Shown here: piece after piece, positions 16,685 to 63,274 of the stretch
Numbering within the stretch: position 1 is the first letter of the stretch
Layout of the letters: each line of letters starts with the position of its first letter
Assembly (NCBI GenBank): GCA_041695355.1
Contig: JBGFRB010000002.1
Span: 25,962-89,961, forward strand
Source: Bacillota bacterium
GTDB lineage: Bacteria > Bacillota > Dethiobacteria > Dethiobacterales > Dethiobacteraceae
Reading direction: 5' to 3'
DNA: 64,000 nucleotides
Notes under the pieces: model-generated
What the model was told of the DNA's origin: nothing
The model's input: the letters and a program-made list of their open reading frames with translations, nothing else
Database searches by the model: none
Translations under genes and position numbers: made by a program

Positions 16685-16731
16685 GTTCAGACGGGAATAT
16701 GAGTGTCCCTTTAATTTTGGAGGGGAGAGCG

Positions 16732-28229: not shown

Positions 28230-28234
28230 CAAGT

Positions 28235-28984: not shown

Positions 28985-29088
28985 TATTCATCACCACCGT
29001 ACGATATTTATGATAACCATAACATATAGCACGAAATATGGCAAGGCCAATATTAACGTACGATATGCTGCAATTTAATTGACAAACA

Positions 29089-29125
29089 CGCCCCCCTGTA
29101 TTACTGTATGTAATACAGGGGGGCG
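29089..29125. promoter_or_regulatory. 37-bp palindrome (16-bp perfect arms) overlapping a TTGACA box in a divergent intergenic region; candidate operator
   Basis: CGCCCCCCTGTATTAC-tgtat-GTAATACAGGGGGGCG read directly. TTGACA lies at 29079-29084. The palindrome ends 5 nt before the ATG at 29131. Confidence 0.6.
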
Positions 29126-29130
29126 GAAAA

Positions 29131-30510: not shown

Positions 30511-30598
30511 CAAGATTAAAATGCTGTAATCTTGCTCTTGCAAAACATTGTTAAACAGATATATTTAAGATAAGAAATATATTTAAGGAAGTGAGCAG

Positions 30599-31834
30599 AT
30601 GTTTGACTTTTTGCTGACGGAGGAACAGTTGCGGTTGCGGGAGCAGGTGCGGACTTTTGTGCGGGGAGTTGACCGGCAGTTAATCCTGGATATGGACGCT
30701 GACAAAGTTACATACCCGGCTGACTATGTGCGCGGACTGGCTGCTGAGCGGCTGCTCGGCCTGCGCTTCCCGGAAAATCTGGGAGGCCGGGCCCTGGGAT
30801 GGGCGGATGAAATCGTGGCGCTTGAAGAAGTGGGGGTGCTGGGCACCTCTCTAGGCTGCCTGTATTCCCTGCCAAGCATTGTCGGTGAGGCGATCCACCG
30901 CTTCGGTACGGCAGAACAACGGGAGAAATACCTGAAAGGCACACTTGCCGGAAGGCTCTTTACGGCTGAGGCTCTGACCGAGCCGCGCGGCGGGTCGGAC
31001 TTTTTCGGCGCCACCACCGTGGCCTGCCGGGAGGGGGACGAGTACGTTTTAAACGGGCAGAAACGCTTTATTGTCGGCGCGGAAGGCGCGGACTATTTTC
31101 TTGTTTATGCCAAGACCGACCCGGCGGCGCCGCCGCACGAGTCAATGAGCGCCTTCCTGGTGGATCGCGGTCCCGGTGTGGAAGTAAAGCATCTGTACGG
31201 CCTGATGGGTACAAGGGGCGGAGGCGCCGGCAGAGTCCTCTTCCGCGAGGCGCGTGTTCCTGCCGCCAATCTGGTGGGCCGGGAGAACGGGGCGGCGGAA
31301 ATTTTTTACCAGATGATGATTCCGGAACGGATGACCAGTGCCGCCGCGGCGCTCGGGATGGCTAGGGCGGCGCTCGAAGTGGCCGTGGACTATAGCAGCA
31401 AGAGAAAGGCTTTTGGCCGGAAAATCAAAGATTATCAGGCGGTCAGCTTTAAGATAGCCGACAGCATTACCAAGCTGGATGCGGCGCGCTCGCTGGTTTA
31501 CACGGCAGCCGCGGCGGTCGACCGTGGTGTGCCTCCCGCCCTGCAGCGCCGTCTGGTTTCAGAGGCAAAGAAGTTTGCCACGGAAACGGCCTGGGAAGTA
31601 GTCAACCACGCCATGCAGGTGCTGGGCGGCATCGGCTATACCAATGTTTACCCGGTAGAGCGTATGCTGCGGGACGTCCGACTGATTATGATCTGGACCG
31701 GCACCAATGAAATCATGGATCTGATTATCCAGCACGAATTTTACAAAGAGCAGCTGGCGGCAGGCCCGCGGGGCAGAAATATCGAAAAAGACGCCCCGGA
31801 AGCCGACAATCTGGAGGAAAAAGTGTACGAGTAA
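30599..31834 (+). CDS. acyl-CoA dehydrogenase family protein
   Basis: TEPRGGSDF and QVLGGIGYT motifs. It is about 70 percent identical by eye over 240 aa to the partial ORF at 63275. Confidence 0.85.
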
Positions 31835-31931: not shown

Positions 31932-32246
31932 GTGAGTTTGCGGGAACTTTTCTTAGGGTTGCAACAAAAGCTGGCCGGCCGGCAGATGAAAGGGTTAAAC
32001 GCCATTTACCAGTTTGAGCTGGATGGTGAGGAAACAGGTGTTTATCACCTTGCCTTTACTGACGGCGCCGGAAAAGTAGGTGAAGGTCCTGTCGCAGACC
32101 CGAACCTGACGGTGACCATGAACAGCGGGGATTTTCGCGCTATGCTGGCCGGTGAACTTAACCCGGCGGCGGCATTCATGGGCGGGAAGCTGAAGATCAA
32201 AGGCGACATGAGCTTGGCCATGAAATTACAGTCTTTCCTGAGTTAA
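31932..32246 (+). CDS. SCP2 sterol-carrier-like domain protein
   Basis: 104 aa, ending in the pattern AAFMGGKLKIKGDMSLAMKL typical of SCP2. Confidence 0.7.
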   Translation: MSLRELFLGLQQKLAGRQMKGLNAIYQFELDGEETGVYHLAFTDGAGKVGEGPVADPNLTVTMNSGDFRAMLAGELNPAAAFMGGKLKIKGDMSLAMKLQSFLS

Positions 32247-32259
32247 GGAGGATGAGAGA

Positions 32260-33084
32260 ATGCTGAACGGAAGAGTTGCTGTTGTAACCGGCGGTTCCAG
32301 GGGGCTGGGCCGGGCGGACGCGCTGGCTCTGGCGCAGGCCGGCGCCGATGTGGTAATCACCGATATTTTGCTGGAAAGTGACGGCAGTGCCGCGGCCGCG
32401 GCTGAGAAGTACGGCGCCTTAAACCAGTTTCTGCAAAGTTCCGGGGCGGTGTACGCCGAACAGACAGCAGCGGAAATCCGGGCCATGGGACGTCGCTCCG
32501 TGGCTTTGCGGCTGGACGTTACCGACCGGGAGGAAGTCAGGCAGGTGATGGCCCGGGTTAAGGAGGAGTTTGGCTCGCTGGATATAATGGTGAACAACGC
32601 TGCTACCCTGGATCATACGGCGCAGCTGGAAAACCAGCGCGACGATCTGTGGGAGAGAGACCTGCGGGTCAACCTGACCGGCACTTACAACTGCTGCAAG
32701 GCAGTCTGGCCGTATATGAAGGAGCGGGGCTGGGGGCGGATTATTAACATGGCTTCCGTGGCCGGAACGCTGGGTGGCTTCGGCCAGGCCAGCTATTCAA
32801 CCACCAAGGCCGGCGTTTTGGGACTGACCCGCAGTCTGGCCCTGGAAGGCGCTCGGCACAACATTACAGTCAACGCTATCGTGCCGGGCATTATCAATAC
32901 CGAAGCATTCCGCATGGGCAATCCCAAGATGAACGAGCGCATGATTAACCGCACCGCCTTCCGGCGTCCGGGCGAGCCGGAAGACATCGCTAACGCCATT
33001 GCCTTTCTGGTGTCCGACAACGCGAAGTACATCACCGGCATTTCCTTAAACGTTTCCGGAGGAATTGAGCTCTTTACCTTCTAA
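32260..33084 (+). CDS. SDR-family oxidoreductase (3-hydroxyacyl-CoA / 3-oxoacyl reductase type)
   Basis: TGGSRGLG, NNAA and YSTTK motifs. Confidence 0.85.
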   Translation: MLNGRVAVVTGGSRGLGRADALALAQAGADVVITDILLESDGSAAAAAEKYGALNQFLQSSGAVYAEQTAAEIRAMGRRSVALRLDVTDREEVRQVMARVKEEFGSLDIMVNNAATLDHTAQLENQRDDLWERDLRVNLTGTYNCCKAVWPYMKERGWGRIINMASVAGTLGGFGQASYSTTKAGVLGLTRSLALEGARHNITVNAIVPGIINTEAFRMGNPKMNERMINRTAFRRPGEPEDIANAIAFLVSDNAKYITGISLNVSGGIELFTF

Positions 33085-33108
33085 ATTTTTGGCGGGAGGT
33101 CATACCTG

Positions 33109-34260
33109 TTGCGTGAAGTTGTGATCGTGGAAGCCGTCCGCACGCCCATCGGGCGGCGTGGGGGCCTGCTTTCCGGCCTGCGGGCCGAGGAACTGGCGGC
33201 AGTCCCGTTGCGGGAAGTAGTGCGGCGGGCCGGCATTGATGCGGCTCTGGTGGAAGACGTGATTATGGGTTGTGTCTCGCAGGTCGGCGAGCAGGCCATG
33301 GATGTCGGCCGCGTGGCGGCGCTGGTGGCCGGTTATCCGGTTCACGTGCCGGCGGTGACTATTGACCGGCAGTGCGGCTCCAGCCAGCAGGCCGTCCATT
33401 TTGCCGCGCAGGCGATTATGGCCGGCGACATGGAAGTGGTGGTCGCGGCCGGTGTGGAAAGCATGAGCCGCGTGCCGATGGGTTCTTCACTGCTAAATGC
33501 GGGGGTAAGCCCGGCACTGTGCTCCAGGTATGAAATTGTGCCGCAGGGAGTATCAGCCGAGCTGATTGCCCGCCAGTGGCAACTTTCCAGGGAGGAACTG
33601 GACAGCTTCAGTCTGACCAGCCACCGCCGGGCTGTGGCTGCCGTAGCGGAAGGGCGCTTCCGCAAGGAAACCGTGCCGGTGGAAGCTCCCCAGGCCGATG
33701 GCACGATAAGGACAGTTGATGCGGATGAAGGCCCCCGGCCGGCAACCTCACTGGAGAAGCTGGCCGCGCTGATGCCGGCGTTTAAACAGGACGGGGTGGT
33801 AACGGCGGGCAACTCCAGCCAGATCAGTGACGGGGCGGCTGCAGTGCTCCTGATGTCGGCCGACAGGGCCAGGGAGCTTGGCCTGAAAGCCCGGGCGCGT
33901 CTTGTCTGCAGGGTTGTGGTCGGCTCCGACCCGACGCTGATGCTGACCGGGCCTATTCCGGCAACGGAAATGGCCCTGGCCAAAACGGGGCTGAAGATGA
34001 AAGACATTGATCTCTTCGAAGTAAATGAAGCGTTTGCGCCGGTACCGCTGGCCTGGGCCAGGGAGCTTGGGGCTGACCATACAAAAGTCAATCCGAACGG
34101 CGGCGCCATTGCCCTCGGCCATCCGCTCGGCGCGAGCGGCGCACGCCTGATGGCCACCATGCTGCACGAGCTGGAGCGGACCGGAGGGCGCTACGGCCTG
34201 CAGACCATGTGTGAAGGGTACGGGATGGCCAATGCCACTATTATTGAACGCCTTGACTGA
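33109..34260 (+). CDS. thiolase (acetyl-CoA C-acyltransferase family)
   Basis: Active-site contexts DRQCGSSQQA, NPNGGAIALGHP and CEGYGMA. TTG start after GGGAGG. Confidence 0.88.
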   Translation: MREVVIVEAVRTPIGRRGGLLSGLRAEELAAVPLREVVRRAGIDAALVEDVIMGCVSQVGEQAMDVGRVAALVAGYPVHVPAVTIDRQCGSSQQAVHFAAQAIMAGDMEVVVAAGVESMSRVPMGSSLLNAGVSPALCSRYEIVPQGVSAELIARQWQLSREELDSFSLTSHRRAVAAVAEGRFRKETVPVEAPQADGTIRTVDADEGPRPATSLEKLAALMPAFKQDGVVTAGNSSQISDGAAAVLLMSADRARELGLKARARLVCRVVVGSDPTLMLTGPIPATEMALAKTGLKMKDIDLFEVNEAFAPVPLAWARELGADHTKVNPNGGAIALGHPLGASGARLMATMLHELERTGGRYGLQTMCEGYGMANATIIERLD

Positions 34261-34295
34261 TAACAAGCCCGTCAGGCGGGCCGGGAGGGACGCTG

Positions 34296-35438
34296 ATGCT
34301 TTCATTTAAATTAAGCCCGGAGCAGGAATCGCTGCGCACACTGGCCAGGGAGTTTGCCCGTTCGGTAATCCTCCCGGTGGCGGCGGAATATGACCGCAGC
34401 GGAGAGGTGCCTTGGCCGGTGATAAAGAAGGCCTGGGAAACAGGCTTTCTGAACATGGGGGTGCCGGAGGAGTACGGCGGAGGAGGGCAGGGTGTTTTGG
34501 CCGGCTGCCTGGTTTCCGAGGAGCTGGCTGCGGCCTGTGCCGGCATCTCGGCCACACTGGCCCTGACCGACCTGGCCTGCACCCCGCTAGTCCTGGCAGG
34601 CACAGCCGAACAGAAGGAGCGCTGGCTGCGTCCTGTCTGCCGGGAAATGAGAATGGTTTCCCTCTGCGTTACCGAGCCGGAGGCGGGTTCGGACGTGGCC
34701 TCGCTGGCCACCACCGCTGTACGCAACGGGGACAGCTACGTTTTAAGCGGCAGCAAGCAATTTATTACCAACGCCAGCATTGCCGACTATTTCGTGGTCT
34801 TTGCCTCTACTGACAGGAAAAAAGGACACCGCGGTATCAGTGCCTTTGTGGTCGAACGCACCGCGCCGGGCCTCTCGGTCGGAAAAAAGGAAGACAAGAT
34901 GGGGCAGCGCGCCTCGGATACGGCCGCTGTTTCTCTGGCAGAAGTGGTCGTCCCGGCTGAGAACCGCCTGGGAGAAGAAGGGGACGGCTTTCACCTGATC
35001 ATGCAGACGTTTAACCGGTCCAGGCCCGGGGTGGCGGCGGCGGCAGTCGGTCTTGGCCGGGCGGCCATGGAGCATGCCGTCCAATACGCCAAAACGAGGG
35101 TACAGTTTGGCGTGCCGATAATCCTGCACCAGGCTGTAGGTTTTATGCTCGCCGATATGCAGAAGGACCTGGATGCCGCCCGCCTGCTGGCCTGGCGTGC
35201 CGCCTGGCTGGCAGACCAGGGAGAGAAAAACTCCCGGGAGAGCGCCATGGCTAAGGCGTTTGCCGCAGACGTGGCCATGCGGGTCACGACCGAGGCGGTG
35301 CAGATTTTCGGCGGCTACGGCTACAGCCGGGAGTATCCGGTGGAAAAGCTGATGCGCGACGCCAAGGTAATGCAGATATACGAAGGGACCTCGCAGATTC
35401 AGCGCCTGCTGCTTACCAGGTCGCTGCTTGACCACTGA
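34296..35438 (+). CDS. acyl-CoA dehydrogenase (short/medium-chain type)
   Basis: TEPEAGSD and QIFGGYGYSREYPVEKLMRDAK motifs. Confidence 0.88.
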   Translation: MLSFKLSPEQESLRTLAREFARSVILPVAAEYDRSGEVPWPVIKKAWETGFLNMGVPEEYGGGGQGVLAGCLVSEELAAACAGISATLALTDLACTPLVLAGTAEQKERWLRPVCREMRMVSLCVTEPEAGSDVASLATTAVRNGDSYVLSGSKQFITNASIADYFVVFASTDRKKGHRGISAFVVERTAPGLSVGKKEDKMGQRASDTAAVSLAEVVVPAENRLGEEGDGFHLIMQTFNRSRPGVAAAAVGLGRAAMEHAVQYAKTRVQFGVPIILHQAVGFMLADMQKDLDAARLLAWRAAWLADQGEKNSRESAMAKAFAADVAMRVTTEAVQIFGGYGYSREYPVEKLMRDAKVMQIYEGTSQIQRLLLTRSLLDH

Positions 35439-35458
35439 TAACCAAAGGAGTGCAAAGT

Positions 35459-36670
35459 ATGAGCGAAATGAGCCGGGCCGCCAATTATTTGCTCGGTCTG
35501 ACCATGCTTTATTATTCCGCTCCCAGACAGGCTGACAGGAAGAAAAACCCGGTGGCCTGGTGTTCATCCATTGCGCCGGTGGAGTTCCTGCGCGCCCTTG
35601 ATGTCCTGCCACTCTTTCCGGAGAACCACGCCGCCCTGATCGGCGCCAGGAAAATGGGCGTGGAACTGGCCGAAGCGGCGGAGGCCATCGGTTATTCCAA
35701 CGACATCTGTTCCTACGCCCGGGCGGACATCGGCCATATCCTGACCGGCAAAAGCCCGGTGGACGGGCTGGCCAGGCCCGACTTTCTGGTCTGCTGCAAC
35801 AACATTTGCGGTACGGTTGTCAAGTGGTATGAAAATCTGGCGCGACATTTTCAGGTGCCGCTTTTTCTGCTTGACACTCCTTTTAACCATGAGCGGGAAA
35901 TACCGGAATTCAGCCTGCGGTATGTGGAGGCGCAGCTGCGGGAACTTATCCCCTGGCTGGAAGGGGTCACCGGCAGGGAGTTTGACTTTGAGCGTTTCAG
36001 AGAAATCTGCCTGCTGACAAACGAGACCTCGCGCCTCTGGAGGGAGGTGCTGGACCTGGCTAAGCACAGGCCGGCTCCCTTTACCGCTTTCGACACCTTT
36101 AACTACATGGCGCCGATAGTTACGATGCGGGGGACGCCGGAGGCCTTGGAATATTACCGCCTGCTCCTGGAAGAACTGCGGCAGAAGGTAAACGAGGGCG
36201 CCGCCGCCGTCGGAGCAGAGAAATACCGGCTGCTGTGGAACGGGATTCCGGTTTGGTTTGCGCTGCGCCCTATGCTGCAGTTAATGTCCAGACATGGGGC
36301 CAATCTGGTTTGCTCCACCTACACCAGCGCCTGGGTACTGGAGTTTGACCCGGATAACCTGCTCGGCAGCATGGCGGAAGCGTACACGGCAATCTTGATT
36401 AACCAGAGCCTGGGGCTGAAACTGGACAACCTGGAAAAGCTGCTCCGTGAATACGGCCTGGACGGCATTATCCATCACTCCAACCGCAGCTGCAAACCCT
36501 ATTGTTTCGGGCTTTATGACCTGAGCCGCCAGTTGCAGGCGGGCAGTCATCCCGTGCCGGAAATGATTTTTGACGGAGACCAGACTGACCCGCGCCATTT
36601 TTCCTGGGCGCAGTTTGAGACCAGGTTCCAGTCTTTTATGGAAACTTTGGCGGCATCAAGTTCAGGTTGA
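35459..36670 (+). CDS. 2-hydroxyacyl-CoA dehydratase family subunit (HgdB/BcrB-like)
   Basis: HGD-D family pattern CSSIAPVEFLRALDVLPLFPENH...ICSYAR. ATG at 35459 follows AAAGGAG. Confidence 0.75.
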   Translation: MSEMSRAANYLLGLTMLYYSAPRQADRKKNPVAWCSSIAPVEFLRALDVLPLFPENHAALIGARKMGVELAEAAEAIGYSNDICSYARADIGHILTGKSPVDGLARPDFLVCCNNICGTVVKWYENLARHFQVPLFLLDTPFNHEREIPEFSLRYVEAQLRELIPWLEGVTGREFDFERFREICLLTNETSRLWREVLDLAKHRPAPFTAFDTFNYMAPIVTMRGTPEALEYYRLLLEELRQKVNEGAAAVGAEKYRLLWNGIPVWFALRPMLQLMSRHGANLVCSTYTSAWVLEFDPDNLLGSMAEAYTAILINQSLGLKLDNLEKLLREYGLDGIIHHSNRSCKPYCFGLYDLSRQLQAGSHPVPEMIFDGDQTDPRHFSWAQFETRFQSFMETLAASSSG

Positions 36671-36691
36671 AGGTTGCAGGAGGGATGACAG

Positions 36692-37828
36692 ATGGAACAT
36701 GTGCTGCAAAGTTTGCTGGAGGCGGCCCGGAATCCGGCACCGGCGATAGCCGGGTGGAAGCAGGCGTCGGGAGGCAAGGTGGTGGGCTGGCTGCCCATCT
36801 ACGTGCCCGAGGAGTTGATCCACGCCGCCGGTGCCCTGCCGGTCAGCCTGTGGGGCGGCAAAACGGAAATTGCCAGGGCCGACGCACACCTGCAGGGTTT
36901 TGCCTGCTCGGTGGTGCGGGCGGTGCTGGAATACGGCCTGAAAGGCACGTATAACATGGTTGACGGCTTTATCTTTCCGTCCACGTGTGACCATATCCAG
37001 AATACCTCTGATATCTGGGCCGCTGTCTTTCCTGACCGGCCCAAATTCGACCTTGTCTATCCGGCCAACAGGCGAAGCAGCGCCTCCGCTGCTTACCTGG
37101 AGCAGCTTTTTACCGCGCTGCAGGAGTGGCTGGAGGGGCTGACCGGCTGCCGGCCAAGCGAAACGAAGCTGCGGGAAAGTATCGGCACCTACAACCGTTA
37201 CCGCTCTCTTAGCGCTGAATTGGCTTCTTTGCGTTCGGCCCGGCCGGAGTGCCTGACCGGGCTGGAGTTTGCGCTGATTACCAAGGCGGCGCTGTTCATG
37301 GAAAAGGAGGAGTATAACCGGCGCTTGGCGGAATTGCTGCCGTGGCTGGCCAACAGGACGGTCAGGCCGCAGCCGAAAGTGCGCCTGGTTGCTTCCGGGA
37401 TCATGGCCGAGCCGGAGGAAATCCTGGAAATCCTTGATGAACTGGGAGGCGTCGTGGTGGCTGACGACCTGGCGCTGGGGGCCAGGACCCTGCGTGCGCC
37501 GTCCGACGAGAGGTTGCCGCCGCTTTCCGCCCTGGTGGACAGGCACCTTCGCCTTGGGCCGTGCTCCACGCTGTATGACTGCCGGAAAGAACGGGGCGCC
37601 CATTTATTGGGGCTGGCTGCCAGGCACAATGCCGACGGCGTCCTGTTCCTGAGCATGAAATTTTGTGAGGCTGAAGAATTTGACTACCCGGTCGTGAAAG
37701 CGGAACTGGAGGCGGCCGGCCTCCCCCACCTGTTCCTGGAAGTGGAGCAGCAAATGTCGGCGCTTGGCCAGGTACGGACGAGGCTGCAGGCCTTCCTAGA
37801 AATCCTGGCGCAGGGACCAAAGCTATGA
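36692..37828 (+). CDS. 2-hydroxyacyl-CoA dehydratase family subunit (HgdA/BcrC-like)
   Basis: GWLPIYVPEELIHAAGALPV, FACSVVR and MKFCEAEEFDYP patterns. Confidence 0.75.
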   Translation: MEHVLQSLLEAARNPAPAIAGWKQASGGKVVGWLPIYVPEELIHAAGALPVSLWGGKTEIARADAHLQGFACSVVRAVLEYGLKGTYNMVDGFIFPSTCDHIQNTSDIWAAVFPDRPKFDLVYPANRRSSASAAYLEQLFTALQEWLEGLTGCRPSETKLRESIGTYNRYRSLSAELASLRSARPECLTGLEFALITKAALFMEKEEYNRRLAELLPWLANRTVRPQPKVRLVASGIMAEPEEILEILDELGGVVVADDLALGARTLRAPSDERLPPLSALVDRHLRLGPCSTLYDCRKERGAHLLGLAARHNADGVLFLSMKFCEAEEFDYPVVKAELEAAGLPHLFLEVEQQMSALGQVRTRLQAFLEILAQGPKL

Positions 37829-38649
37829 CCTTAACCATGGGCGTTGACCTGGGTTCCATTACGGCCAAGTGTGTACTTCTGCAGGACGGCTGCCGGGTGC
37901 TGGCCGACCGTGTCGTTAAAGGCGGTATGGTCGGGGACGGAGCTGAGAAGGCGGTGAGGGAAGCGCTGGAACAGGCAGGGGTTTCCCAGACAGATGTTGC
38001 TTATATCGTGGCCACCGGCTACGGGCGGGTAATATTTTCAGGTGCCCGTGAGGAAGTGAGCGAGATAGGCTGTCACGGTAAAGGCGCCTTTTTTCAGGAT
38101 CCGAGAGTGCGCACCGTTATCGACATCGGCGGCCAGGATGCCAAGGTTATCCGTCTGGGCACCGGGGGCCGCGTGCTGAACTTTGCCATGAACGAGAAGT
38201 GTGCCGCCGGCACCGGGCGGTTCCTGGAAGTAATGGCTCAGGCTCTTTCGGCCCCGGTAGCGGAACTGGCACGCCTTGGCGGACGGCCCGCGGGAAAAGT
38301 GAATATCAGCAGTACCTGCACGGTATTTGCGGAATCAGAGGTAATTTCCCACCTTGCTGCCGGCCGGCCGGTCGCCGATATTGCGGCCGGTATCCATGAA
38401 TCAATTGCCAGGCGGATTGCCGGCCTCGCCTATCGCGTCGGGCTGGAGGAGAAAGTGATGGTCACCGGCGGTGTGGCCCAAAACGAAGGGGTGGTGGCGG
38501 CGCTTGCGGAAAAGCTGGGCTGCGAACTGCTCGTCCCGCGCTTTGCCCAGACCAACGGCGCTCTGGGGGCCGCAATTTTCGCTTTTGAAAAAGTAAGTAA
38601 ATCATCCGGGGAGACTGGAGCAGCTGATGTTAAGAAGACAGAGGGTTAA
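37825..38649 (+). CDS. BcrAD/BadFG-type ATPase, (R)-2-hydroxyacyl-CoA dehydratase activase (HgdC-like)
   Basis: GVDLGSITAK and CAAGTGRFLE (cluster cysteine context), about 270 aa. ATGA overlap with the upstream subunit. Confidence 0.85.
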   Translation: MTLTMGVDLGSITAKCVLLQDGCRVLADRVVKGGMVGDGAEKAVREALEQAGVSQTDVAYIVATGYGRVIFSGAREEVSEIGCHGKGAFFQDPRVRTVIDIGGQDAKVIRLGTGGRVLNFAMNEKCAAGTGRFLEVMAQALSAPVAELARLGGRPAGKVNISSTCTVFAESEVISHLAAGRPVADIAAGIHESIARRIAGLAYRVGLEEKVMVTGGVAQNEGVVAALAEKLGCELLVPRFAQTNGALGAAIFAFEKVSKSSGETGAADVKKTEG

Positions 38650-39625
38650 TGCAACGGAATGCGGAGCAGAACCGTTTTGCTGGCAAAGGCTGTCTTTGCC
38701 GACACCTTTTCCGGTTGGGCCGGTAAATGTTTACCTGTTGGCCGGCGAGCCGCTGACGTTGATCGACACCGGCCCCGACACACCGGAAGCAAGGGCGGGG
38801 CTGACCGCTGCACTGAACGCGGCAGGCTTTGCCCCGCAGGATATAGCACGGGTGGCAATTACACACGGGCACAGCGACCACGCCGGCCTGTCCGCCTGGT
38901 TTCGGGAAATGGGGGCGGAGGTACTGCTGCACCCTCTCGAAGCGGAAAAATTGTCCGGACTGGACTTTTGGCCGGCGCGTCGCGAGTATCTGCGGCAGCT
39001 TGGTGTTCCCGACGAACTGTTGGAGGCGGCGCATTCCCTGGCGCGACGGACGGCGTCCTTCCGGGGAGGTTGCCTGACTGACTTCCGGCCGCTGCAGGAG
39101 GGAGACACGTTGGAGTTTAACGGTTTTTCCCTGTCGGTCCTGGCAGTGCCGGGTCACACCGGCGGGCATCTGGCCTTTTATCAGGAGGAAAACGAGGTGT
39201 TGCTGTGCGGCGATACGCTGCTGAATAAAATCAGCCCCAACCCGCTGGCGGAAGTGCACCCCGCCAGGCCGGGCGAAAGGTCCGGGAGCCTAAGCCAGTT
39301 TTTATCAACCATGGACAGGGTTATAGAACTGGCGCCGGAGCTGGTCTTGCCCGGTCATGGCGAGGCTTTGCGGGAGGCGGGGCAGCGCGTCGCAGAAATA
39401 ACCAATCACCATCGCCAGCGCCTGCAGCACATCAGAGGAATGGTCCAGGCACGCGGGCCGTGTTCTCCTTTTGAACTGGCCAGCCAGCTTTACGGCCGTT
39501 TGAGCGGCTGGGACGTGTTGCTGGCCGTTTCTGAGGTCAGCGCTCACCTGGACTGGCTTACCGCCCGCGGGGACCTCGAAGAAACCGCTGATTATAGCGG
39601 CCGGCAGACCTATCAAACACTATAA
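38627..39625 (+). CDS. MBL-fold metallo-hydrolase
   Basis: HGHSDHAG (HxHxDH) motif plus downstream PGHTGGH. Confidence 0.8.
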   Translation: MLRRQRVNATECGAEPFCWQRLSLPTPFPVGPVNVYLLAGEPLTLIDTGPDTPEARAGLTAALNAAGFAPQDIARVAITHGHSDHAGLSAWFREMGAEVLLHPLEAEKLSGLDFWPARREYLRQLGVPDELLEAAHSLARRTASFRGGCLTDFRPLQEGDTLEFNGFSLSVLAVPGHTGGHLAFYQEENEVLLCGDTLLNKISPNPLAEVHPARPGERSGSLSQFLSTMDRVIELAPELVLPGHGEALREAGQRVAEITNHHRQRLQHIRGMVQARGPCSPFELASQLYGRLSGWDVLLAVSEVSAHLDWLTARGDLEETADYSGRQTYQTL

Positions 39626-39642
39626 ATAAGGGGAGTTGTGGC

Positions 39643-40416
39643 ATGGATTATCTGAAACTGGCTGTGGAAAAAGAGAACGGATATGTTGTGGCCGCCATCA
39701 GCAATCCTCCGGCCAATGCCTTGAGTCAGGCGGTGCTAGTGGAATTGCACAGCCTGCTCGACCAGTGCCTTGCTGACAGCGAAGTCAGGGCTATTGTTAT
39801 TGCCGGTTCGGGAGAAAAGCTGTTCAGCGGCGGGGCCGACATTACCGAATTTGCTTTTATGCAAGCCGGCGGCAGTCCCTTAATCGACGGCAACACGGTG
39901 TTTTCCAGGATTGAAAATTTTCCAAAGCCGGTCATTGCCGCCATCCAGGGTAGTGCCTTTGGCGGCGGCTGTGAACTGGTTCTGTCCTGTCACCTGAGAA
40001 TCATGTCGGCCTCCGCGAAAATTGGGTTGCCGGAGGTAAGGCTCGGCATTATCCCTGGATGGGGAGGGACGCAGCGGCTGCCCAGGCTGATCGGCAAGAC
40101 CAGGGCCATGCAAATGATTTTAACCGGCGACCCGCTGGCTGCTGAGGAAGCGCTTGCCTGCGGCCTGGTAAACAGCGTGCTGCCGGCGGAGGAAGTGCTG
40201 GCCGGAGCCAAAGCTTTGGCCGCCAGGCTGGCCGGTGGGGCGCCGCTGGCGATACGGGAAATTGTCAGGGCTGTTACCATGGGTCTTGATACCGGCATTG
40301 AGGAGGGACTGAAAATAGAAGCAGACGGCTTTAAAACGGTTTTCGCCAGCGAAGACGCCAAAGAGGGTCCCATGGCCTTCTTTCAGAAACGACCGGCCAA
40401 TTTTCAAGGCAGATAG
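39643..40416 (+). CDS. enoyl-CoA hydratase/isomerase (crotonase) family protein
   Basis: FSGGADI, GSAFGGGCEL and GLPEVRLGIIPGWGGTQRL motifs. Confidence 0.88.
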   Translation: MDYLKLAVEKENGYVVAAISNPPANALSQAVLVELHSLLDQCLADSEVRAIVIAGSGEKLFSGGADITEFAFMQAGGSPLIDGNTVFSRIENFPKPVIAAIQGSAFGGGCELVLSCHLRIMSASAKIGLPEVRLGIIPGWGGTQRLPRLIGKTRAMQMILTGDPLAAEEALACGLVNSVLPAEEVLAGAKALAARLAGGAPLAIREIVRAVTMGLDTGIEEGLKIEADGFKTVFASEDAKEGPMAFFQKRPANFQGR

Positions 40417-40457
40417 TTTGCTTGCCGGCATAATTATCCGGTAAGGGAGGCTTAAAA

Positions 40458-41912
40458 ATGAAAACAGCGGCCGAGTACACCGACAGTTTAAAAAAGCGGC
40501 GTTTAACTGTCTATATGTTCGGAGAGCTGGTGGAAAACCCGGTGGAAAACCCGGTGATCCGCCCATCCCTCAATTCAGTGGCCAAAACCTATGAATTGGC
40601 TGAAGACCCGCGCTACGCGGAGCTGATGACTGTCACCTCCAGCCTGACGGGAAAGAGAATTAACCGCTTCACTCATTTGCACCAAAGCTGTGCCGACCTG
40701 GTGGACAAAGTGAAAATGCTGCGGCTGCTGGGTCAGAAAACCGGTTCCTGTTTCCAGCGCTGTGTCGGCTTTGACGCTTTCAACGCTGTGGACAGCACCA
40801 CCGCGGAAATGGACGGGGCGCTTGGCACCTGTTACAACAAATTATTCCGCAAATTTTTGCAGTACGTCCAAGACGAGGACCTGGTCTGCACCGGTGCCAT
40901 GACCGATCCCAAAGGTGACCGCTCTCTTAAAAGCCCCAGCCAACAGGCTGACCCGGACCTGTACCTGCGGGTGGTAGCCAGGGAAGCTGACGGAATAGTG
41001 GTGCGCGGCGCCAAGTGCCACCAGACCGGGGCGCTGAATTCCCACGAAATTCTCGTCATGCCTACTATGGCCTTAAGCAGCGAGGAAGACAGGGACTATG
41101 CCGTCTGTTTTGCCCTGCCCAGTGACAGCAAGGGGCTGGTTTATATTTACGGGCGCCAGGCCAGCGACACGCGCAAGCTGGAGGGCGGCGGCATGGATGT
41201 GGGCAATTGCCGCTACGGCGGACACGAGGCAGTAATTATCTTTGATGATGTTTTTGTGCCCTGGGAGCGGGTGTTCATGTGCGGCGAATATAAATTTGCC
41301 TCGCTGCTTGTGGAACGCTTCGCCGGCTACCACCGCCAGAGTTACGGGGGCTGCAAGGTTGGCGTCGGCGACGTGCTGATTGGGGCGGCGGCCCAGGCCG
41401 CGGAATATCAGGGCACCGACAAAGCCTCGCACGTCAGGGATAAACTTATTGAAATGGTGCACTTAAACGAGACGCTGTATGCCTGCGGGATTGCCTGCTC
41501 GTCCCAGGGGAGCGTGACAGCCTCGGGGACCTACCTGATTGATTTGCTGCTGGCTAACGTCTGCAAGCAGAACGTGACGCGCTTTCCCTATGAGATTGCG
41601 AGGCTGGCCGAGGACATTGCCGGCGGGCTGCTGGTTACGATGCCCGCGGAAGCCGATTTCCGGCACCCGCAGGCAGGCAGGTACCTGGAAAAGTACCTGA
41701 AGGGAGTTGCCTCCGTGCCGACTGAGCATCGGCTGCGCATGCTCCGCCTGATTGAAAACCTGACTATCGGCACGGCAGCGGTGGCGTACAGGACCGAATC
41801 AATGCACGGTGCCGGCTCCCCGCAGGCGCAGCGGGTAATGATTGCCCGCCAGGCCGATATGGAGTGCAAAAAGCGGCTGGCGCGGGTGCTGGCCGGGATT
41901 GAGCCGGAATAA
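40458..41912 (+). CDS. 4-hydroxybutyryl-CoA dehydratase / vinylacetyl-CoA isomerase family (AbfD-like; 4-HPA hydroxylase fold)
   Basis: TGSCFQRCVG (CxxxC cluster ligands) and the later GGHEAVIIFDDVFVPWERVFMCGE (His and Cys ligand context). Confidence 0.75.
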   Translation: MKTAAEYTDSLKKRRLTVYMFGELVENPVENPVIRPSLNSVAKTYELAEDPRYAELMTVTSSLTGKRINRFTHLHQSCADLVDKVKMLRLLGQKTGSCFQRCVGFDAFNAVDSTTAEMDGALGTCYNKLFRKFLQYVQDEDLVCTGAMTDPKGDRSLKSPSQQADPDLYLRVVAREADGIVVRGAKCHQTGALNSHEILVMPTMALSSEEDRDYAVCFALPSDSKGLVYIYGRQASDTRKLEGGGMDVGNCRYGGHEAVIIFDDVFVPWERVFMCGEYKFASLLVERFAGYHRQSYGGCKVGVGDVLIGAAAQAAEYQGTDKASHVRDKLIEMVHLNETLYACGIACSSQGSVTASGTYLIDLLLANVCKQNVTRFPYEIARLAEDIAGGLLVTMPAEADFRHPQAGRYLEKYLKGVASVPTEHRLRMLRLIENLTIGTAAVAYRTESMHGAGSPQAQRVMIARQADMECKKRLARVLAGIEPE

Positions 41913-41925
41913 AGAGAGAGCCGGG

Positions 41926-43233
41926 GTGTTGGCTGTGACAAAACCGGTTGTTTCACTGGTCACCTTTGATGACCCTTACCGCTCGCTGCGCAAAGCGCTG
42001 GAGCTGTGCGACGGGTTTGCCGGGCTGGACAGAAACGACAGAATTCTCATTAAACCGAACCTGGTGTCCTGGGACTTTGATCTGCCCTTCCCTCCCTACG
42101 GCGTGGTCGTTACCTCGGCCGTAATGGCTGCCCTGGTCAGCATACTGTACGAAGAAGGGTTCCGCCGGCTGACCATCGGGGAGGGACCGCTGATGATTCC
42201 CAAAACGCGGGGCAGGGCGATGTTTACCGTCTTGGGCTACGACATCCTGCGGGAAAAGTACGGTGTACAGCTGGCGGACTTTAATGAAGAAAAGTTTGAG
42301 CCGGTTGATTTTGGCGGACTGAAGCTTTCCGTGGCCCGCAGGGTACTGGAGGCAGATAAGATTATCAATCTGCCGGTGCTGAAGACCCACAACCAGTGCC
42401 AGGTTTCCCTGGGCATTAAAAACCTGAAGGGCTGCCTGGACAGAAAGTCCAAAACCGTCTGCCACGGCAAAGAACTTGACCTAGACCACACCTTCCCGCA
42501 CATCACGGAAAAGCTTCCGGTCGCCCTGACCGTGACAGACGGCGTGTTTGCCTTGGCCAGGGGTCCGGGGCACACCGGGGAGGCGGTCAGAAAAAACCTG
42601 CTGCTGGCCTCAAGAAATGTCCTGGCCTGTGACATAGCGGGAGCCGAGCTGATGAGCTTCAGTGCCGGCAAAATCAAGCACCTGGCTTATTACGCCGCTC
42701 TGACCAATGGTGCTGCGGGCCTTGAGGAGATTGAAATCAGAGGGGAGCCTTTGGAAAAGCACCGTTTTCCCCTGGAGCATGACTGGGAGTGGACGTCCGG
42801 GAACACCGGGCCGCTTGCCTTTCAGAAAAAGGGCATTACCGGTCTTGCCGTCAGGAAGTATGACAGCTCACTTTGCACCGGCTGCTCCATGATGTACAAC
42901 CCCATGCTGATTTTGCTGATGTCGGCCTTTCAGGGGGCACCCTTTCCCAACGTGGAAGTAATCACCGGTAAAAGACAAAAAGCCTCGCCCGGCTTTGACT
43001 ATTCGGTGTTGTACGGCCAATGCGCCTGCTCCCTGAACAGGGACAACCCTGCTGTCAGGCAGGCCATTCCCATCGGCGGCTGCCCGCCGGATTTGGAGGA
43101 ATTTATGGCGGCGCTGCGGGAGGCAGGGATTAACTGCGACTATAAGCAATACATTGCCTTCCGGCACTATCTGTTTAATCGCTACAGAAAGGAAGACGGC
43201 TTTGACCCGGCGTTGTTTTCGCTTGGCGGATGA
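41926..43233 (+). CDS. DUF362 domain protein with a Cys-rich C-terminal region
   Basis: VSLVTFDDPYRSLRKALELC...ILIKPNL is a DUF362-like N-terminus. The track start at 41842 overlaps the previous gene, so I prefer the GTG at 41926. Confidence 0.6.
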   Translation: MLAVTKPVVSLVTFDDPYRSLRKALELCDGFAGLDRNDRILIKPNLVSWDFDLPFPPYGVVVTSAVMAALVSILYEEGFRRLTIGEGPLMIPKTRGRAMFTVLGYDILREKYGVQLADFNEEKFEPVDFGGLKLSVARRVLEADKIINLPVLKTHNQCQVSLGIKNLKGCLDRKSKTVCHGKELDLDHTFPHITEKLPVALTVTDGVFALARGPGHTGEAVRKNLLLASRNVLACDIAGAELMSFSAGKIKHLAYYAALTNGAAGLEEIEIRGEPLEKHRFPLEHDWEWTSGNTGPLAFQKKGITGLAVRKYDSSLCTGCSMMYNPMLILLMSAFQGAPFPNVEVITGKRQKASPGFDYSVLYGQCACSLNRDNPAVRQAIPIGGCPPDLEEFMAALREAGINCDYKQYIAFRHYLFNRYRKEDGFDPALFSLGG

Positions 43234-43287
43234 CAGGCCGCTTCCGGTCCTGACTGACGAACCAAATTAACTGTTGGAGGAATAGGC

Positions 43288-43818
43288 GTGCTGATTGAGT
43301 ATAACGGTAAAAAGCCGCGGGTTTCGGAAAAGGCCTTCCTGGCGCCTGATACCACACTGATTGGCGACGTGACGGTGGAGGCGGGGGCCAGCATCTGGCC
43401 CGGCGCCCGTCTGCGCGGGGACTTTGGCAAAATCGTGGTGGGCGCCTGCAGCAGCATCCAGGACAACGCCGTAATCCATGTGCTGCCGGGCGGCGCTACC
43501 ATCGTAGAGGAGCATGTCACCGTGGCGCACGGCGCGGTGTTACACAACTGCACTCTGAAAAAGGGGAGCGTGGTGGGAATGAACGTGGTGGTGATGGATA
43601 ATGCCGTGGTCGGCGAGCAGGCGATGATTGCCGCCGGCAGCGTTGTTGCCGGCGGAGCGGAAATTCCGGCCCGCCACCTGGCGGCCGGTACGCCGGCCGT
43701 GGTAAAAAAAGAACTTTCCGGCCAGGCGCTGTGGTGGGTGGAGGCCAGTTCCGCCGCTTACGTCCAGCTGGCGGAAAGCTACCTGGCGCAGGGGATAGGG
43801 CGGGTTAAGCAGACATAG
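43288..43818 (+). CDS. gamma-carbonic-anhydrase-like hexapeptide-repeat protein (PaaY/YrdA type)
   Basis: Left-handed beta-helix repeats such as IGDVTVEAGASIWPGARLRGD. GGAGGA RBS and a GTG start. Confidence 0.8.
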   Translation: MLIEYNGKKPRVSEKAFLAPDTTLIGDVTVEAGASIWPGARLRGDFGKIVVGACSSIQDNAVIHVLPGGATIVEEHVTVAHGAVLHNCTLKKGSVVGMNVVVMDNAVVGEQAMIAAGSVVAGGAEIPARHLAAGTPAVVKKELSGQALWWVEASSAAYVQLAESYLAQGIGRVKQT

Positions 43819-43920: not shown

Positions 43921-44781
43921 ATGGCTTACGAGACAATCTGTTACGAAAAGGCAGGCAGGATTGCAACGGTGACTCTTAACCGCCCTGAAAAACTTAATGC
44001 AATTAGGCCGCCGATGCCGGAAGAAATTGAGAAGGCTTTGGCTTTGGCCAATGCTGACGATGAAGTTCGCGTGATAATAATGCAGGGAGCAGGAAAATCA
44101 TTTTGTGCCGGGTTTGATTTTTCGGAAAATCTGACGCATTTTGAGGGGTGGGGCATGGAAGAGGCTACGGTGAATTGGGATCCGGGCAGGGATTTAATGG
44201 GGGTGGTAAATCCTTTTACGGGGCCAATTCCTAATTTTATGAGCATCTGGCGTAGCAGCAAGCCTGTTATTGCAAAGGTCCACGGCTGGTGCGTGGGCGG
44301 AGGGTCGGAGATGGCATTACTCAGTGATATTGTGATTGCGGCAGACGATGCCAAGTTTGGTACGCCCTATGCAAGAGTGTGGGGATGCCACCTGACTGGG
44401 ATGTGGATTTACCGGCTTGGTTTGACCAGAGCCAAAATGTTTGCTTTGACAGGTGATTCTGTGAGCGGCAAAGAAGCTGCGGAGATAGGGCTGATCAACA
44501 GGTCTTACCCTGCAGATGAATTGGACGGGAAAGTGCGCTACTGGGCGGAACGAGTGTCGCTTATTCCCTCAAGCCAACTCGCGGCGATGAAACTGATAGT
44601 AAACCAAGCTTATGACAATATGGGCTTGCAGACAACACAGTACCTTGGGACAATCTTAGACGGCTGCATGCGCAATACTCCAGAAGGAAAGCAGTTTGTG
44701 CATACAGCCTTGGAAAAAGGAGTAAATGCTGCCGTGACTTTGCGCGACAGGCCGTTTGGCGATTACAGCCAGGGAAAATAG
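43921..44781 (+). CDS. enoyl-CoA hydratase/isomerase family protein (long form)
   Basis: IATVTLNRPEKLNA, FCAGFDF and VHGWCVGGGSE motifs. Confidence 0.85.
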   Translation: MAYETICYEKAGRIATVTLNRPEKLNAIRPPMPEEIEKALALANADDEVRVIIMQGAGKSFCAGFDFSENLTHFEGWGMEEATVNWDPGRDLMGVVNPFTGPIPNFMSIWRSSKPVIAKVHGWCVGGGSEMALLSDIVIAADDAKFGTPYARVWGCHLTGMWIYRLGLTRAKMFALTGDSVSGKEAAEIGLINRSYPADELDGKVRYWAERVSLIPSSQLAAMKLIVNQAYDNMGLQTTQYLGTILDGCMRNTPEGKQFVHTALEKGVNAAVTLRDRPFGDYSQGK

Positions 44782-44861
44782 CGCACTATTTGCCTTAACA
44801 AGACGTACCCCATTTATCGACATTTTCGGTCATTACAATTAGCTCAGAAATAATAAGGGGA

Positions 44862-45653
44862 GTGGGTATCTTGAAGACGGTGTTGTTTGAAGTGACGGGT
44901 AGCGTTGCCAGAATCACACTGAACCGGCCGGAGATGTTCAACGCTCTGAACGGGCTGATGGGAGAAGAACTGGCTCAGTCAGTTAAAAAATGTTTTGCAC
45001 CGGAAATTAGGGCTGTGGTACTGACCGGGGCGGGTAGGGCGTTCTGTTCGGGTGGAGACTTAAAGGCGATGCAGGAGGCGGGCAGGGAAAAGTTGCCGCA
45101 ACTCCTTAGCGATTTAACCAAACTGTTCCACCGCGTGATAATGGATATCCGGCTGCTGCCAAAGCCGGTGATAGCTGCCGTGAATGGCTCTCTGGGAGGC
45201 GGTGGGTTCAGCCTGGCTCTGGCTTGTGACCTGCGTTTCGCTGCGGAACAAGCCCGTTTTAAGCAAGCCTATACCAGTGCCGCGCTTTGTCCCGATGGCG
45301 GTTTTACCGCGTTCCTTCCGGTAATGGTCGGCCTTGCCAAAGCTTCTGAGCTTCTTTTCCTGGATTCTGTGCTTGACGCCCGGCAGGCGGCGGAACTAGG
45401 CATTGTCAATGAGGTGTTCAGTGAGGACGAGTTTCGGGAGAGGGTGGCTACCATTGCCTCAAATCTGGCCGCAGGGCCGACTCAATCTTTTGCCCGAGTT
45501 AAAGCTCTGCTTAATCAGTCTCTATTGACGCAACTCGAAAGACAACTTGAATTGGAGCGTCAAGGGATGATCGCAGCTAGTCGGACGGAGGATGCTTACG
45601 AGGGAATTGCGGCTTTTTTTGAAAAGCGCCCTCCAGCGTACCAGGGAAAGTAG
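44862..45653 (+). CDS. enoyl-CoA hydratase/isomerase family protein
   Basis: ARITLNRPEMFNAL, FCSGGDL and VNGSLGGGGFSLALACD motifs. The start codon is uncertain (GTG 44862 or TTG 44871). Confidence 0.85.
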   Translation: MGILKTVLFEVTGSVARITLNRPEMFNALNGLMGEELAQSVKKCFAPEIRAVVLTGAGRAFCSGGDLKAMQEAGREKLPQLLSDLTKLFHRVIMDIRLLPKPVIAAVNGSLGGGGFSLALACDLRFAAEQARFKQAYTSAALCPDGGFTAFLPVMVGLAKASELLFLDSVLDARQAAELGIVNEVFSEDEFRERVATIASNLAAGPTQSFARVKALLNQSLLTQLERQLELERQGMIAASRTEDAYEGIAAFFEKRPPAYQGK

Positions 45654-45785
45654 CGGAGCGTAAATTGCAGGAGTTATTTTTTTGTTGTCGAAGATTTAAC
45701 ACAGCAAATATTCTGATTTTTCAAAACTCTTAGATTTTGCTTGAATAACTGAAACGGAACAAGCTCCTGCAAAGGAGGGCAAGTC

Positions 45786-48053: not shown

Positions 48054-48069
48054 TGGTATGTTTCTTGCA
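48054..48069 (+). promoter_or_regulatory. sigma-54 (-24/-12) promoter TGGTATGTTTCTTGCA
   Basis: Fits TGGCAC-N5-TTGCW at the invariant GG and GC positions with correct spacing. It lies 46 nt upstream of the atuA-like gene and directly downstream of the activator gene. Confidence 0.65.
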
Positions 48070-56334: not shown

Positions 56335-56346
56335 ATTGTATGAGGC

Positions 56347-56397
56347 AAGGCGGCGCCGCCTTCAGCACGGACTGTGTTCTAAGGCGGCCCGCCGCCT
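56347..56397 (+). repeat. two GC-rich hairpins built on the same AAGGCGGC/GCCGCCT arms, between the SBP and permease genes
   Basis: AAGGCGGCGCCGCCTT at 56347-56362, and AGGCGG-cccg-CCGCCT at 56382-56397. Confidence 0.7.
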
Positions 56398-56456
56398 CCA
56401 TCTATGTTTGGGAAACCGTCATGCGAAGGATTGCTGAAAGGGGTATTTATTGGAAA

Positions 56457-57326: not shown

Positions 57327-57334
57327 GTGCGAGC

Positions 57335-58405: not shown

Positions 58406-58409
58406 TAAA

Positions 58410-60107: not shown

Positions 60108-60110
60108 TCC

Positions 60111-63232: not shown

Positions 63233-63274
63233 TACGCAAACTCTATAAGCAGTGTCTGAAGGAGGTTCGTGCAT

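Follow-up and report, generated by a model that had tools for sequence, protein, structure and literature searches.

To our knowledge, work on dehydratases that act through ketyl radicals has been confined almost entirely to clostridia that ferment amino acids. The 2-hydroxyacyl-coenzyme A (CoA) dehydratases are specific for the (R)-enantiomer of their substrate, and Hofmeister and Buckel reportedly described in 1992 that the lactyl-CoA dehydratase of Clostridium propionicum converts (R)-2-hydroxybutyryl-CoA to crotonyl-CoA. In the clostridial crotonyl-CoA hub, the glutarate route via 2-hydroxyglutaryl-CoA and the 4-aminobutyrate/succinate route via 4-hydroxybutyryl-CoA merge at crotonyl-CoA, from where common crotonase, Hbd, thiolase and Bcd-type enzymes take over (Vital et al. 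2014, PMC3994512). The routes of this hub are encoded in separate loci and involve CoA-transferases and glutaconyl-CoA decarboxylase. Here, we analyse a stretch of 64,000 nucleotides (contig C12, positions 25962-89961; hereafter the window) from a Bacillota bacterium of the Dethiobacteraceae, whose genome of 2.04 Mb on 23 contigs is 97% complete and whose closest public relatives are the Dethiobacter CROMO metagenome-assembled genomes (MAGs), the Bacillota MAG HKB214 and other Bacillota MAGs. Unlike the known hub, the window carries an ATP-activated 2-hydroxyacyl-CoA dehydratase system and an AbfD-type 4-hydroxybutyryl-CoA dehydratase in one gene string, in an organism that is probably an anaerobic respirer and in which the pathway probably runs in the oxidative direction. 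The reading that we favour, with moderate confidence, is that this string is a mosaic island of two separable modules joined head to tail, whose dehydratases act in parallel on different hydroxy acids and whose products would be crotonyl-type 2-enoyl-CoAs that, as in the known hub, pass to shared enzymes.

The original prediction, made from the sequence alone, had proposed two different radical dehydratase systems at this locus, and domain assignments, structural matches and conserved ligands all bear this out. The first system consists of two HGD-D subunits, a HadB-like alpha subunit (35450-36670; PF06050, 1.2e-83) and a HadC-like beta subunit (36692-37828; PF06050, 2.8e-81), followed by an ATP-dependent activase of the HgdC/HadI type (37825-38649; BcrAD_BadFG, 4e-58). 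The start codon of the alpha subunit is the GTG at 35450, 9 nt 5' of the start at 35459 that had been predicted. Both subunits align end to end with HadBC of Clostridioides difficile, alpha with 3o3m_A at 2.4e-90 (306 bits, compared with 147 bits for MbdO) and beta with 3o3m_B at 3.3e-75. In the alignment with 3o3m_A, the cysteines of the motifs DxC(A/S)YAR, CCNNIC and NRSCK are identical to those of HadB, and these presumably include the ligands of the [4Fe-4S] cluster. Among the NCBIfam models, alpha scores 367 bits with HadB (NF052455, cut-off 750), 183 bits with the benzoyl-CoA reductase (BCR) model BCR-B and 82 bits with the double-cubane model, while beta scores 308 bits with HadC (NF052456, cut-off 700) and 167 bits with BCR-C. 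With HadB and HadC scores about twice as high, the pair is, as judged by these models, nearer to the dehydratases than to BCR or the double-cubane reductases. The activase is a protein of 274 residues encoded by a single gene, scores 260 bits with TIGR00241 (cut-off 125) and has its best structural matches in HgdC (1hux, 2.6e-78) and HadI (4eht, 5.4e-78). It is thus a single HgdC/HadI-type activator, whereas class I benzoyl-CoA reductases have two such subunits, BcrA and BcrD.

The similarity to C. difficile HadBC/HadI (3o3m, 4eht) comprises the two HGD-D subunits, the single HgdC-type ATPase activator and an adjacent acyl-CoA dehydrogenase. In contrast to C. difficile, no HadA-type CoA-transferase, LdhA or EtfAB is found nearby, and the partners are a metallo-beta-lactamase (MBL)-fold hydrolase, an SCP2 protein, a short-chain dehydrogenase/reductase (SDR), a thiolase and an AMP-forming ligase. 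Scores at about half of the equivalog cut-offs and a tree position outside the HadB clade do not fit a HadBC orthologue. The original prediction had suggested a phylogeny of the dehydratase subunits as a check, and our alpha-subunit tree, with the beta subunit as outgroup and HadB as its only named reference, resolves three groups. One is a large environmental clade with 48-50% identity. Another contains C. difficile HadB with homologues from gut bacteria and Negativicutes (L007-L011, L051, L106). The third, sister to the HadB clade, unites the window with the Dethiobacter MAGs, L005, L006, a Metallumcola-like genome and a small number of proteins from metagenomes. Because of this sister position, the window enzyme is classified from its sequence as a member of the 2-hydroxyacyl-CoA dehydratase family that is no HadBC orthologue. 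A D-2-hydroxyacid dehydrogenase gene adjoins related clusters in L097 and L051.

The segment 36692-39625 stands out by its divergence. HadC, activase and MBL hydrolase are 81-88% identical to their counterparts in the related contig L095 (the MBL hydrolase is 69% identical to that of L001), compared to 93-97% for the flanking genes. Four contigs of related CROMO Dethiobacter MAGs (L002, L003, L096, L108) end directly after hadC and carry no linkage information. These observations suggest that the HadC-activase-MBL segment may be prone to recombination or variable between strains.

The second system is AbfD (40458-41912; HpaB_N, PF11794, and HpaB, PF03241), a predicted 4-hydroxybutyryl-CoA dehydratase/vinylacetyl-CoA delta-isomerase that is present as a single copy in the genome. 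It matches AbfD of Clostridium aminobutyricum (1u8v) over the full length at 6e-210. The four [4Fe-4S] ligands C99, C103, H292 and C299 (1u8v numbering) are all identical, and so are Y296, K300, the YRTESMHG block and E455, with the conserved blocks reading GYHRQSYGGCKVG and YRTESMHGAGSPQAQR. Tyr296, Lys300 and Glu455 are the residues that we take to be active in catalysis. The likeness to the C. aminobutyricum enzyme thus extends from the whole-length match to the Cys/Cys/His/Cys ligand set and the catalytic Tyr, Lys and Glu. The surroundings differ from the abf genes of C. aminobutyricum: neither AbfH, the iron-dependent alcohol dehydrogenase (Fe-ADH)-type 4-hydroxybutyrate dehydrogenase, nor the CoA-transferase AbfT is found in the window, the neighbours of AbfD are instead a crotonase, a DUF362 protein and a PaaY-like protein, and a ligase is encoded within a Liv-type importer. 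In related loci, a second gene of the HpaB/AbfD family with about 43% identity to AbfD lies near AbfD or HadBCI modules (L012, 7194-8951, - strand; L095, 1-1301). This uncharacterised AbfD-like variant does not occur in the genome of the window.

Every gene between 30.6 and 45.7 kb lies on the + strand, and the neighbours named in the original prediction were all recovered by domain search. The block begins with the acyl-CoA dehydrogenase ACAD1 (30599-31834; Pfam acyl-CoA_dh N, M and C domains), which is 97% identical to its counterpart in L095 and 94% to that in L001. It is followed by a lipid-binding or carrier-like SCP2 protein of 104 residues (31932-32246; PF02036, 2.9e-23), which is also found in the HadBCI module of L001, L002, L003, L095 and L096. 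Next are an SDR (32260-33084; adh_short_C2, 2e-60), probably a dehydrogenase of the 3-hydroxyacyl-CoA/3-oxoacyl reductase type with FabG and acetoacetyl-CoA reductase-like NCBIfam scores near or under the cut-offs, and a thiolase of the degradative or acetoacetyl-CoA type (33109-34260; Thiolase_N and Thiolase_C, 451 bits with TIGR01930 and above its cut-off). The Pfam-assigned ACAD2 (34296-35438), an acyl-CoA dehydrogenase or enoyl-CoA reductase, lies immediately 5' of the dehydratase; its top NCBIfam models are AcrC (400 bits) and cyclohexane-1-carbonyl-CoA dehydrogenase (375 bits), both below the cut-off. Between activase and AbfD are the binuclear-metal MBL-fold hydrolase (38627-39625; PF00753) and ECH1, a crotonase of the short-chain enoyl-CoA hydratase type (39643-40416; ECH_1, 2.7e-61). 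AbfD is followed by the DUF362 protein (41926-43233; PF04015, 6.6e-38), for which the GTG at 41926 is a more likely start than 41842, and by a hexapeptide protein similar to PaaY, CaiE and gamma-carbonic anhydrases (43288-43818; Hexapep, 163 bits with the PaaY model TIGR02287, cut-off 320). From SCP2 to PaaY (31932-43818) successive genes are spaced by -23 to 54 nt, a Shine-Dalgarno sequence precedes each gene start, and no terminator-like hairpin lies within any of the intergenic gaps. Judged from this spacing, the packing is compatible with one transcription unit. That two different types of radical dehydratase occur in one tightly packed, co-directional string was thus predicted correctly, and a near-identical arrangement is present in L095.

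L095 is a Logan contig whose HadB is 89-90% identical to that of the window. It has the identical gene order from ACAD1 to PaaY behind different upstream genes. In HKB214, the closest named relative, HadBCI and AbfD modules are found on two contigs, L001 and L012. In a comparison of the whole block, another check suggested at the outset, the order is kept in L095, and the two modules are split in HKB214. In L001 the string ACAD1-SCP2-SDR-thiolase-ACAD2-HadB-HadC-activase-MBL is followed by an aldehyde:ferredoxin oxidoreductase (AOR), a second SCP2, an Fe-ADH, a thiolase and a PrpR-type sigma-54 activator. In L012 the order is crotonase-AbfD-PaaY, followed immediately by a substrate-binding protein, LivHM, a ligase and LivGF, while DUF362, the AbfD paralogue and a sigma-54 activator are in divergent orientation. 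The PaaY-like protein 3' of AbfD in L012 is 91% identical to that of the window, and the Liv/ligase unit of L012 (12701-19100) shares gene order and 51-81% identity with the corresponding unit of the window.

The separation of the two modules extends to more distant relatives. Within the same HadBC clade, AbfD is absent from the 10 kb around HadBCI in L005, L006, L092/L107 and L097; L092/L107 is the complete 3.7-Mb genome of Metallumcola ferriviriculae, whose nearest abfD gene lies at a distance of about 100 kb. Among the best 80 AbfD loci, 79 have no HGD gene within 10 kb. The exception is L051, a locus of a Negativicutes MAG, where AbfD shares one strand with a transporter, a sigma-54 activator, HGD alpha, beta and activase, a crotonase, a thiolase and Hbd, and a D-2-hydroxyacid dehydrogenase gene is close by. 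A true AbfD is encoded in 45 of 401 sampled genomes of the phylum, and 24 of the 45 also encode a HadB-like alpha subunit; the two genes are at most 10 kb apart in one of the 24 (G254, L106), where they lie on opposite strands. An HGD-type dehydratase, a crotonase and a thiolase adjoin AbfD in both L051 and L106, and Hbd does so in L051 only. From the phylum and locus counts, the two dehydratases commonly co-occur in a genome and are physically linked only sporadically. The split in HKB214, the clade members that have no linked AbfD and these counts indicate that the modules are separable. The original prediction had gone further and proposed one substrate that requires both alpha- and gamma-hydroxy eliminations, and the same three lines of evidence do not support this proposal.

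The modules nevertheless draw on the same partners. Crotonases 67-69% identical to ECH1 are found beside AbfD in L012 (67%) and beside HadBCI in L005 and L092/L107, and the DUF362 protein of the window is 61-63% identical to copies that accompany HadBCI in L005 and L092 and 79% identical to the copy that accompanies AbfD in L012. Since the same types of crotonase (67-69%) and DUF362 protein (61-79%) travel with either dehydratase, we propose a trunk that is shared by both. An AMP-forming ligase is also present in the HadBC-clade loci L005, L092 and L097. The MBL hydrolase is a recurrent partner of the HadBCI clade to which the window belongs. It lies immediately 3' of the activase in four of the seven clade members with known flanks (window, L001, L095 and L097), and in L005 and L006 MBL genes are more distant within the locus. 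Its translation shows a canonical HxHxDH metal site, as the motif HGHSDH. The best structural matches are an uncharacterised Thermus protein (2zo4, 4.5e-39) and a Bacillus paraoxonase/lactonase (8zxg, 3.6e-36), while similarity to glyoxalase II and to the thioesterase PqsE is weak. The MBL hydrolase is thus a candidate thioesterase or lactonase.

The DUF362 protein is the partner for which we find a fold relationship. Copies are encoded in L095 (16502-17806), L012 (4935-6227, - strand), L005 (3785-5077), L092 (299-1591) and L097 (1601-2926). An AlphaFold (AF2) model built from nine homologues reached a pLDDT of 75.8 and a pTM of 0.81. In a Foldseek search of the PDB, all 19 significant matches of this model belong to the LarA superfamily, with E values from 1.5e-6 to 4.6e-4 but TM-scores of only 0.26-0.37. 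Pfam also unites DUF362 and the LarA N-terminal domain in one clan (PMC11770544). The model therefore assigns the fold of LarA, the lactate racemase, to the DUF362 protein. Nine aligned DUF362 proteins share an invariant H155-x9-K165-x14-H180 pattern, and the genome's own LarA homologue has H-x9-K-x15-H at the corresponding place. We take these positions to be the second catalytic His, the Lys that tethers the nickel-pincer nucleotide (NPN) and the Ni-binding His of LarA. A link at the sequence level was considered and rejected: PF09861 does not match, a search of the PDB with a DUF362 profile returned chance matches only, and hhalign aligns H155 with the His of the genome's own LarA at a probability of only 1.7%, which leaves fold and motif as the sole support. 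In contrast to LarA, the DUF362 protein has no counterpart of the first catalytic His and carries an additional Cys-rich C-terminal part, in which five invariant cysteines suggest an Fe-S site. LarC (230 bits) and LarE (331 bits) are encoded on contig C5 with scores above the cut-offs; because the genome also has a true LarA homologue, they are not specific evidence for DUF362. In L097, a contig of a Dethiobacter sp., HadBCI-MBL has a DUF362 gene on its 5' side and, at a distance of a few kb on its 3' side (16173-17800), genes for an AIRC (LarB-like) protein and a PP-loop NAD_synthase-like (LarE-like) protein, which hints at a local supply of the nickel-pincer cofactor. The modelled racemase fold next to a dehydratase would be compatible with a 2-hydroxy acid as substrate, with the DUF362 protein acting as a LarA-like hydroxy-acid enzyme. 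DUF362 proteins beside either dehydratase are candidates for a new nickel-pincer or Fe-S enzyme.

In the parallel arrangement that we favour, module 1 would comprise ACAD1, SCP2, SDR, thiolase, ACAD2, HadB, HadC, activase and MBL. Priming by the activase would cost ATP and draw on a low-potential electron, and the primed HadBC-like enzyme would then convert an (R)-2-hydroxyacyl-CoA to the 2-enoyl-CoA and water via a ketyl radical. The simplest substrates that fit have four to six carbons, such as 2-hydroxybutyryl-CoA and 2-hydroxyisocaproyl-CoA. Module 2 would consist of crotonase, AbfD, DUF362 and PaaY, fed by the Liv-type importer with its embedded CoA ligase, and AbfD would convert 4-hydroxybutyryl-CoA to crotonyl-CoA. 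Crotonyl-type 2-enoyl-CoAs from both branches would be taken to acetyl-CoA by the shared crotonase, SDR and thiolase, while the ACADs may handle saturated acyl-CoAs or serve as enoyl-CoA reductases. Several findings weigh against this arrangement. The two systems adjoin each other in the window and L095, where only a 41-nt gap could accommodate a promoter; the dehydratases are therefore probably co-expressed, which is also compatible with a single pathway. Module 1 of L001 has no crotonase of its own, and SCP2 together with two ACADs hints at substrates larger or more hydrophobic than C4. Neither a CoA-transferase nor a D-2-hydroxyacid dehydrogenase is found among the genes of 27-64 kb, and in the genome tblastn detects just one distant gene of the 2-Hacid_dh type. 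No homologue of Fe-ADH is detected in the genome either (tblastn, E < 1e-15), so without an Fe-ADH-type 4-hydroxybutyrate dehydrogenase the source of 4-hydroxybutyrate must be external. Finally, the sole named reference of the tree, C. difficile HadB, was taken from the PDB alignment, and HgdA, FldB and LcdA are not part of that tree.

Contiguity is also an argument for a sequential route, in which a single substrate carrying a 2-hydroxy and a 4-hydroxy group, or its lactone, passes through both dehydratases. Examples would be 2,4-dihydroxybutyrate derived from homoserine or 2-oxo-4-hydroxybutyrate, or a 2-hydroxy-gamma-butyrolactone opened by the MBL hydrolase. After CoA activation, HadBC would remove the 2-hydroxy group, ACAD2 would reduce the 4-hydroxy-2-enoyl-CoA, AbfD would remove the 4-hydroxy group, and crotonase, SDR and thiolase would follow. 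The string ACAD2-HadBCI-MBL-ECH1-AbfD is contiguous in the window and L095, the named proteins closest in structure to the MBL hydrolase include a paraoxonase/lactonase, and two Cys/Met-family enzymes dependent on pyridoxal phosphate (PLP), which act on homoserine-type compounds, are encoded just upstream. L051 adds a run of HGD alpha/beta/activase, crotonase, thiolase, Hbd and AbfD on the same strand beside a D-2-hydroxyacid dehydrogenase. Against this stand the separate contigs of HKB214, the five other HadBC-clade members that have no AbfD in their neighbourhood (L005, L006, L092/L107 and L097) and the single case of linkage within 10 kb in 24 genomes that have both enzymes. In addition, the MBL hydrolase accompanies HadBCI rather than AbfD in relatives, and the block is devoid of sugar-acid or homoserine-deaminating genes. 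The modular distribution thus weakens the sequential reading, to which the same-strand run of L051 still lends some weight, and we consider it unlikely. Quite improbable in our view is its boldest form, in which ACAD2-HadBCI-MBL-crotonase-AbfD-DUF362 constitutes a single undescribed anaerobic pathway, with two radical dehydratases that successively remove two hydroxyls of a small di-hydroxy acid or its lactone and with DUF362 as a new nickel-pincer enzyme that prepares the correct isomer. The statement that no described route fits the whole block still holds, and a literature search for a route combining both dehydratases found none.

Separable modules would also fit two functionally unrelated neighbours, with HadBCI running reductively in a Stickland-like manner. 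A 2-oxo acid would be reduced to the (R)-2-hydroxy acid, converted to the CoA ester, dehydrated and passed to ACAD2, with the saturated acyl-CoA as electron sink; the MBL hydrolase would be the releasing thioesterase, and AbfD would serve a separate oxidation of 4-hydroxybutyrate. An AcrC/AcdB-like ACAD indeed adjoins hadBC, AcrC is the top NCBIfam model of ACAD2, and in the had operon of C. difficile an ACAD gene likewise lies beside hadBC. The MBL hydrolase has the metal motif of glyoxalase II, an enzyme that cleaves 2-hydroxyacyl thioesters. However, the block contains no etfAB, CoA-transferase or 2-hydroxyacid dehydrogenase, ATP would be wasted if an AMP-forming ligase made the CoA ester only for it to be hydrolysed again, and SDR and thiolase in the conserved core indicate oxidation. 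We regard this reductive mode as rather doubtful, with a clearly low probability. Still less likely, and poorly compatible with the subunit scores, is a different ketyl-radical chemistry, directed at a bulky CoA ester that is alicyclic, isoprenoid or otherwise branched; the whole island from 30.6 to 64 kb, with its Atu-like carboxylase, SCP2 and four ACADs, would then degrade one class of branched lipids and AbfD would act mainly as a delta3-delta2 enoyl-CoA isomerase. SCP2 belongs to the conserved core, HadB scores far under its equivalog cut-off and falls into its own clade, AbfD is known as a vinylacetyl-CoA isomerase (PDB 6vjr), and an Atu/Liu-like carboxylation module with more beta-oxidation genes lies downstream under a sigma-54 activator. 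But alpha and beta are much nearer to HadBC than to BCR or the double-cubane reductases, the Atu-like module is missing from the relatives' loci, and AbfD retains all dehydratase residues that were checked. The LarA-fold partner and the D-2-hydroxyacid dehydrogenases near relatives' clusters indicate 2-hydroxy acids instead.

The start of the unit is probably marked by the leader of ACAD1. These approximately 85 nt (30511-30598) are conserved with positions 5050-5137 of L095 despite the differing upstream genes and contain the direct repeat ATATATTTAAG and a sigma-70-like TTGCAA-16-TATATT element. The leader may thus provide both the unit start and a putative binding site for a regulator. A CBS-PAS sigma-54 activator is encoded downstream (45786-47924, + strand; Pfam). 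The only good sigma-54 promoter is TGGTATGTTTCTTGCA at 48054-48069, 5' of the Atu-like operon. The repeat AGAAWATWTGTACAC, a candidate upstream activating sequence (UAS) of this activator, occurs only 5' of the Atu-like operon and is absent from the 30-45 kb block, so there is no evidence that the CBS-PAS activator controls the dehydratase genes. A weak sigma-54-like site 5' of abfD (40407-40422) was rejected: it deviates from the consensus at two positions, conservation is lacking in L012, and in L095 the -12 element is changed.

Further features surround the dehydratase block. Immediately 5' of it (27099-30510), the two Cys/Met-family PLP enzymes are of the cystathionine or methionine gamma-lyase type, and one of them is fused to a ribbon-helix-helix (RHH) DNA-binding domain; the same gene order is present in L001. 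Enzymes of the cystathionine/methionine gamma-lyase type yield 2-oxobutyrate, a possible precursor of 2-hydroxybutyrate. On the 3' side of PaaY are two members of the crotonase family, ECH2 (43921-44781, + strand; Pfam, above the cut-off of NF009125) and the PaaG/isomerase-like ECH3 (44862-45653, + strand), for which oxepin-CoA hydrolase/PaaG models score best, below their cut-offs. The GC content of ECH2, ECH3 and the sigma-54 activator (43921-47924) is 47-50%, compared with 57-61% for the dehydratase block, and ECH2 and ECH3 have no close homologue in the related loci examined, where the L095 contig stops just 3' of the PaaY-like gene. This piece may have been acquired separately. A horizontal transfer of the dehydratase block itself was considered on the basis of GC content and rejected, as its difference to the genome mean of about 55-57% is not distinctive. 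Further 3' follow an Atu/Liu-like carboxylase module, which is absent from the relatives' loci, the Liv importer with its ligase, a MaoC hydratase, an Fe-S/CCG protein and a further ACAD. The Liv-type ABC importer (55018-61625, + strand; Pfam) contains the AMP-forming acyl-CoA ligase (58398-60107) and is probably an uptake and activation unit for acids. The ligase gene sits between the permease and ATPase genes, so that acid uptake and CoA activation look coupled. ACAD1 and ACAD4, which is truncated by the end of the window (63269-64000), are paralogues that flank an island of 33 kb, and the ACAD1 copies of HKB214 and L095 are 72% identical to ACAD4.

All enzymes of the locus belong to known families. 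What is new is a sister clade of HadBC that has unusual partners and is linked here to an AbfD module, together with a DUF362 protein that, judged from the model, has the LarA fold and is found repeatedly beside either type of dehydratase. An uncharacterised clade of ATP-activated dehydratases is thereby placed in Dethiobacter-like bacteria, with related MAGs from serpentinite sites, and it comes with new partners: the MBL hydrolase, SCP2, a ligase that replaces the CoA-transferase and the LarA-fold DUF362 protein. If the two dehydratases feed crotonyl-CoA in parallel, the locus would show that anaerobic respirers oxidise 2- and 4-hydroxy acids via crotonyl-CoA; if they act in sequence on one substrate, it would represent a new deoxygenation route. 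Under either model, the recurrent DUF362 protein would be a concrete candidate for a nickel-pincer enzyme that does not belong to the LarA family itself.

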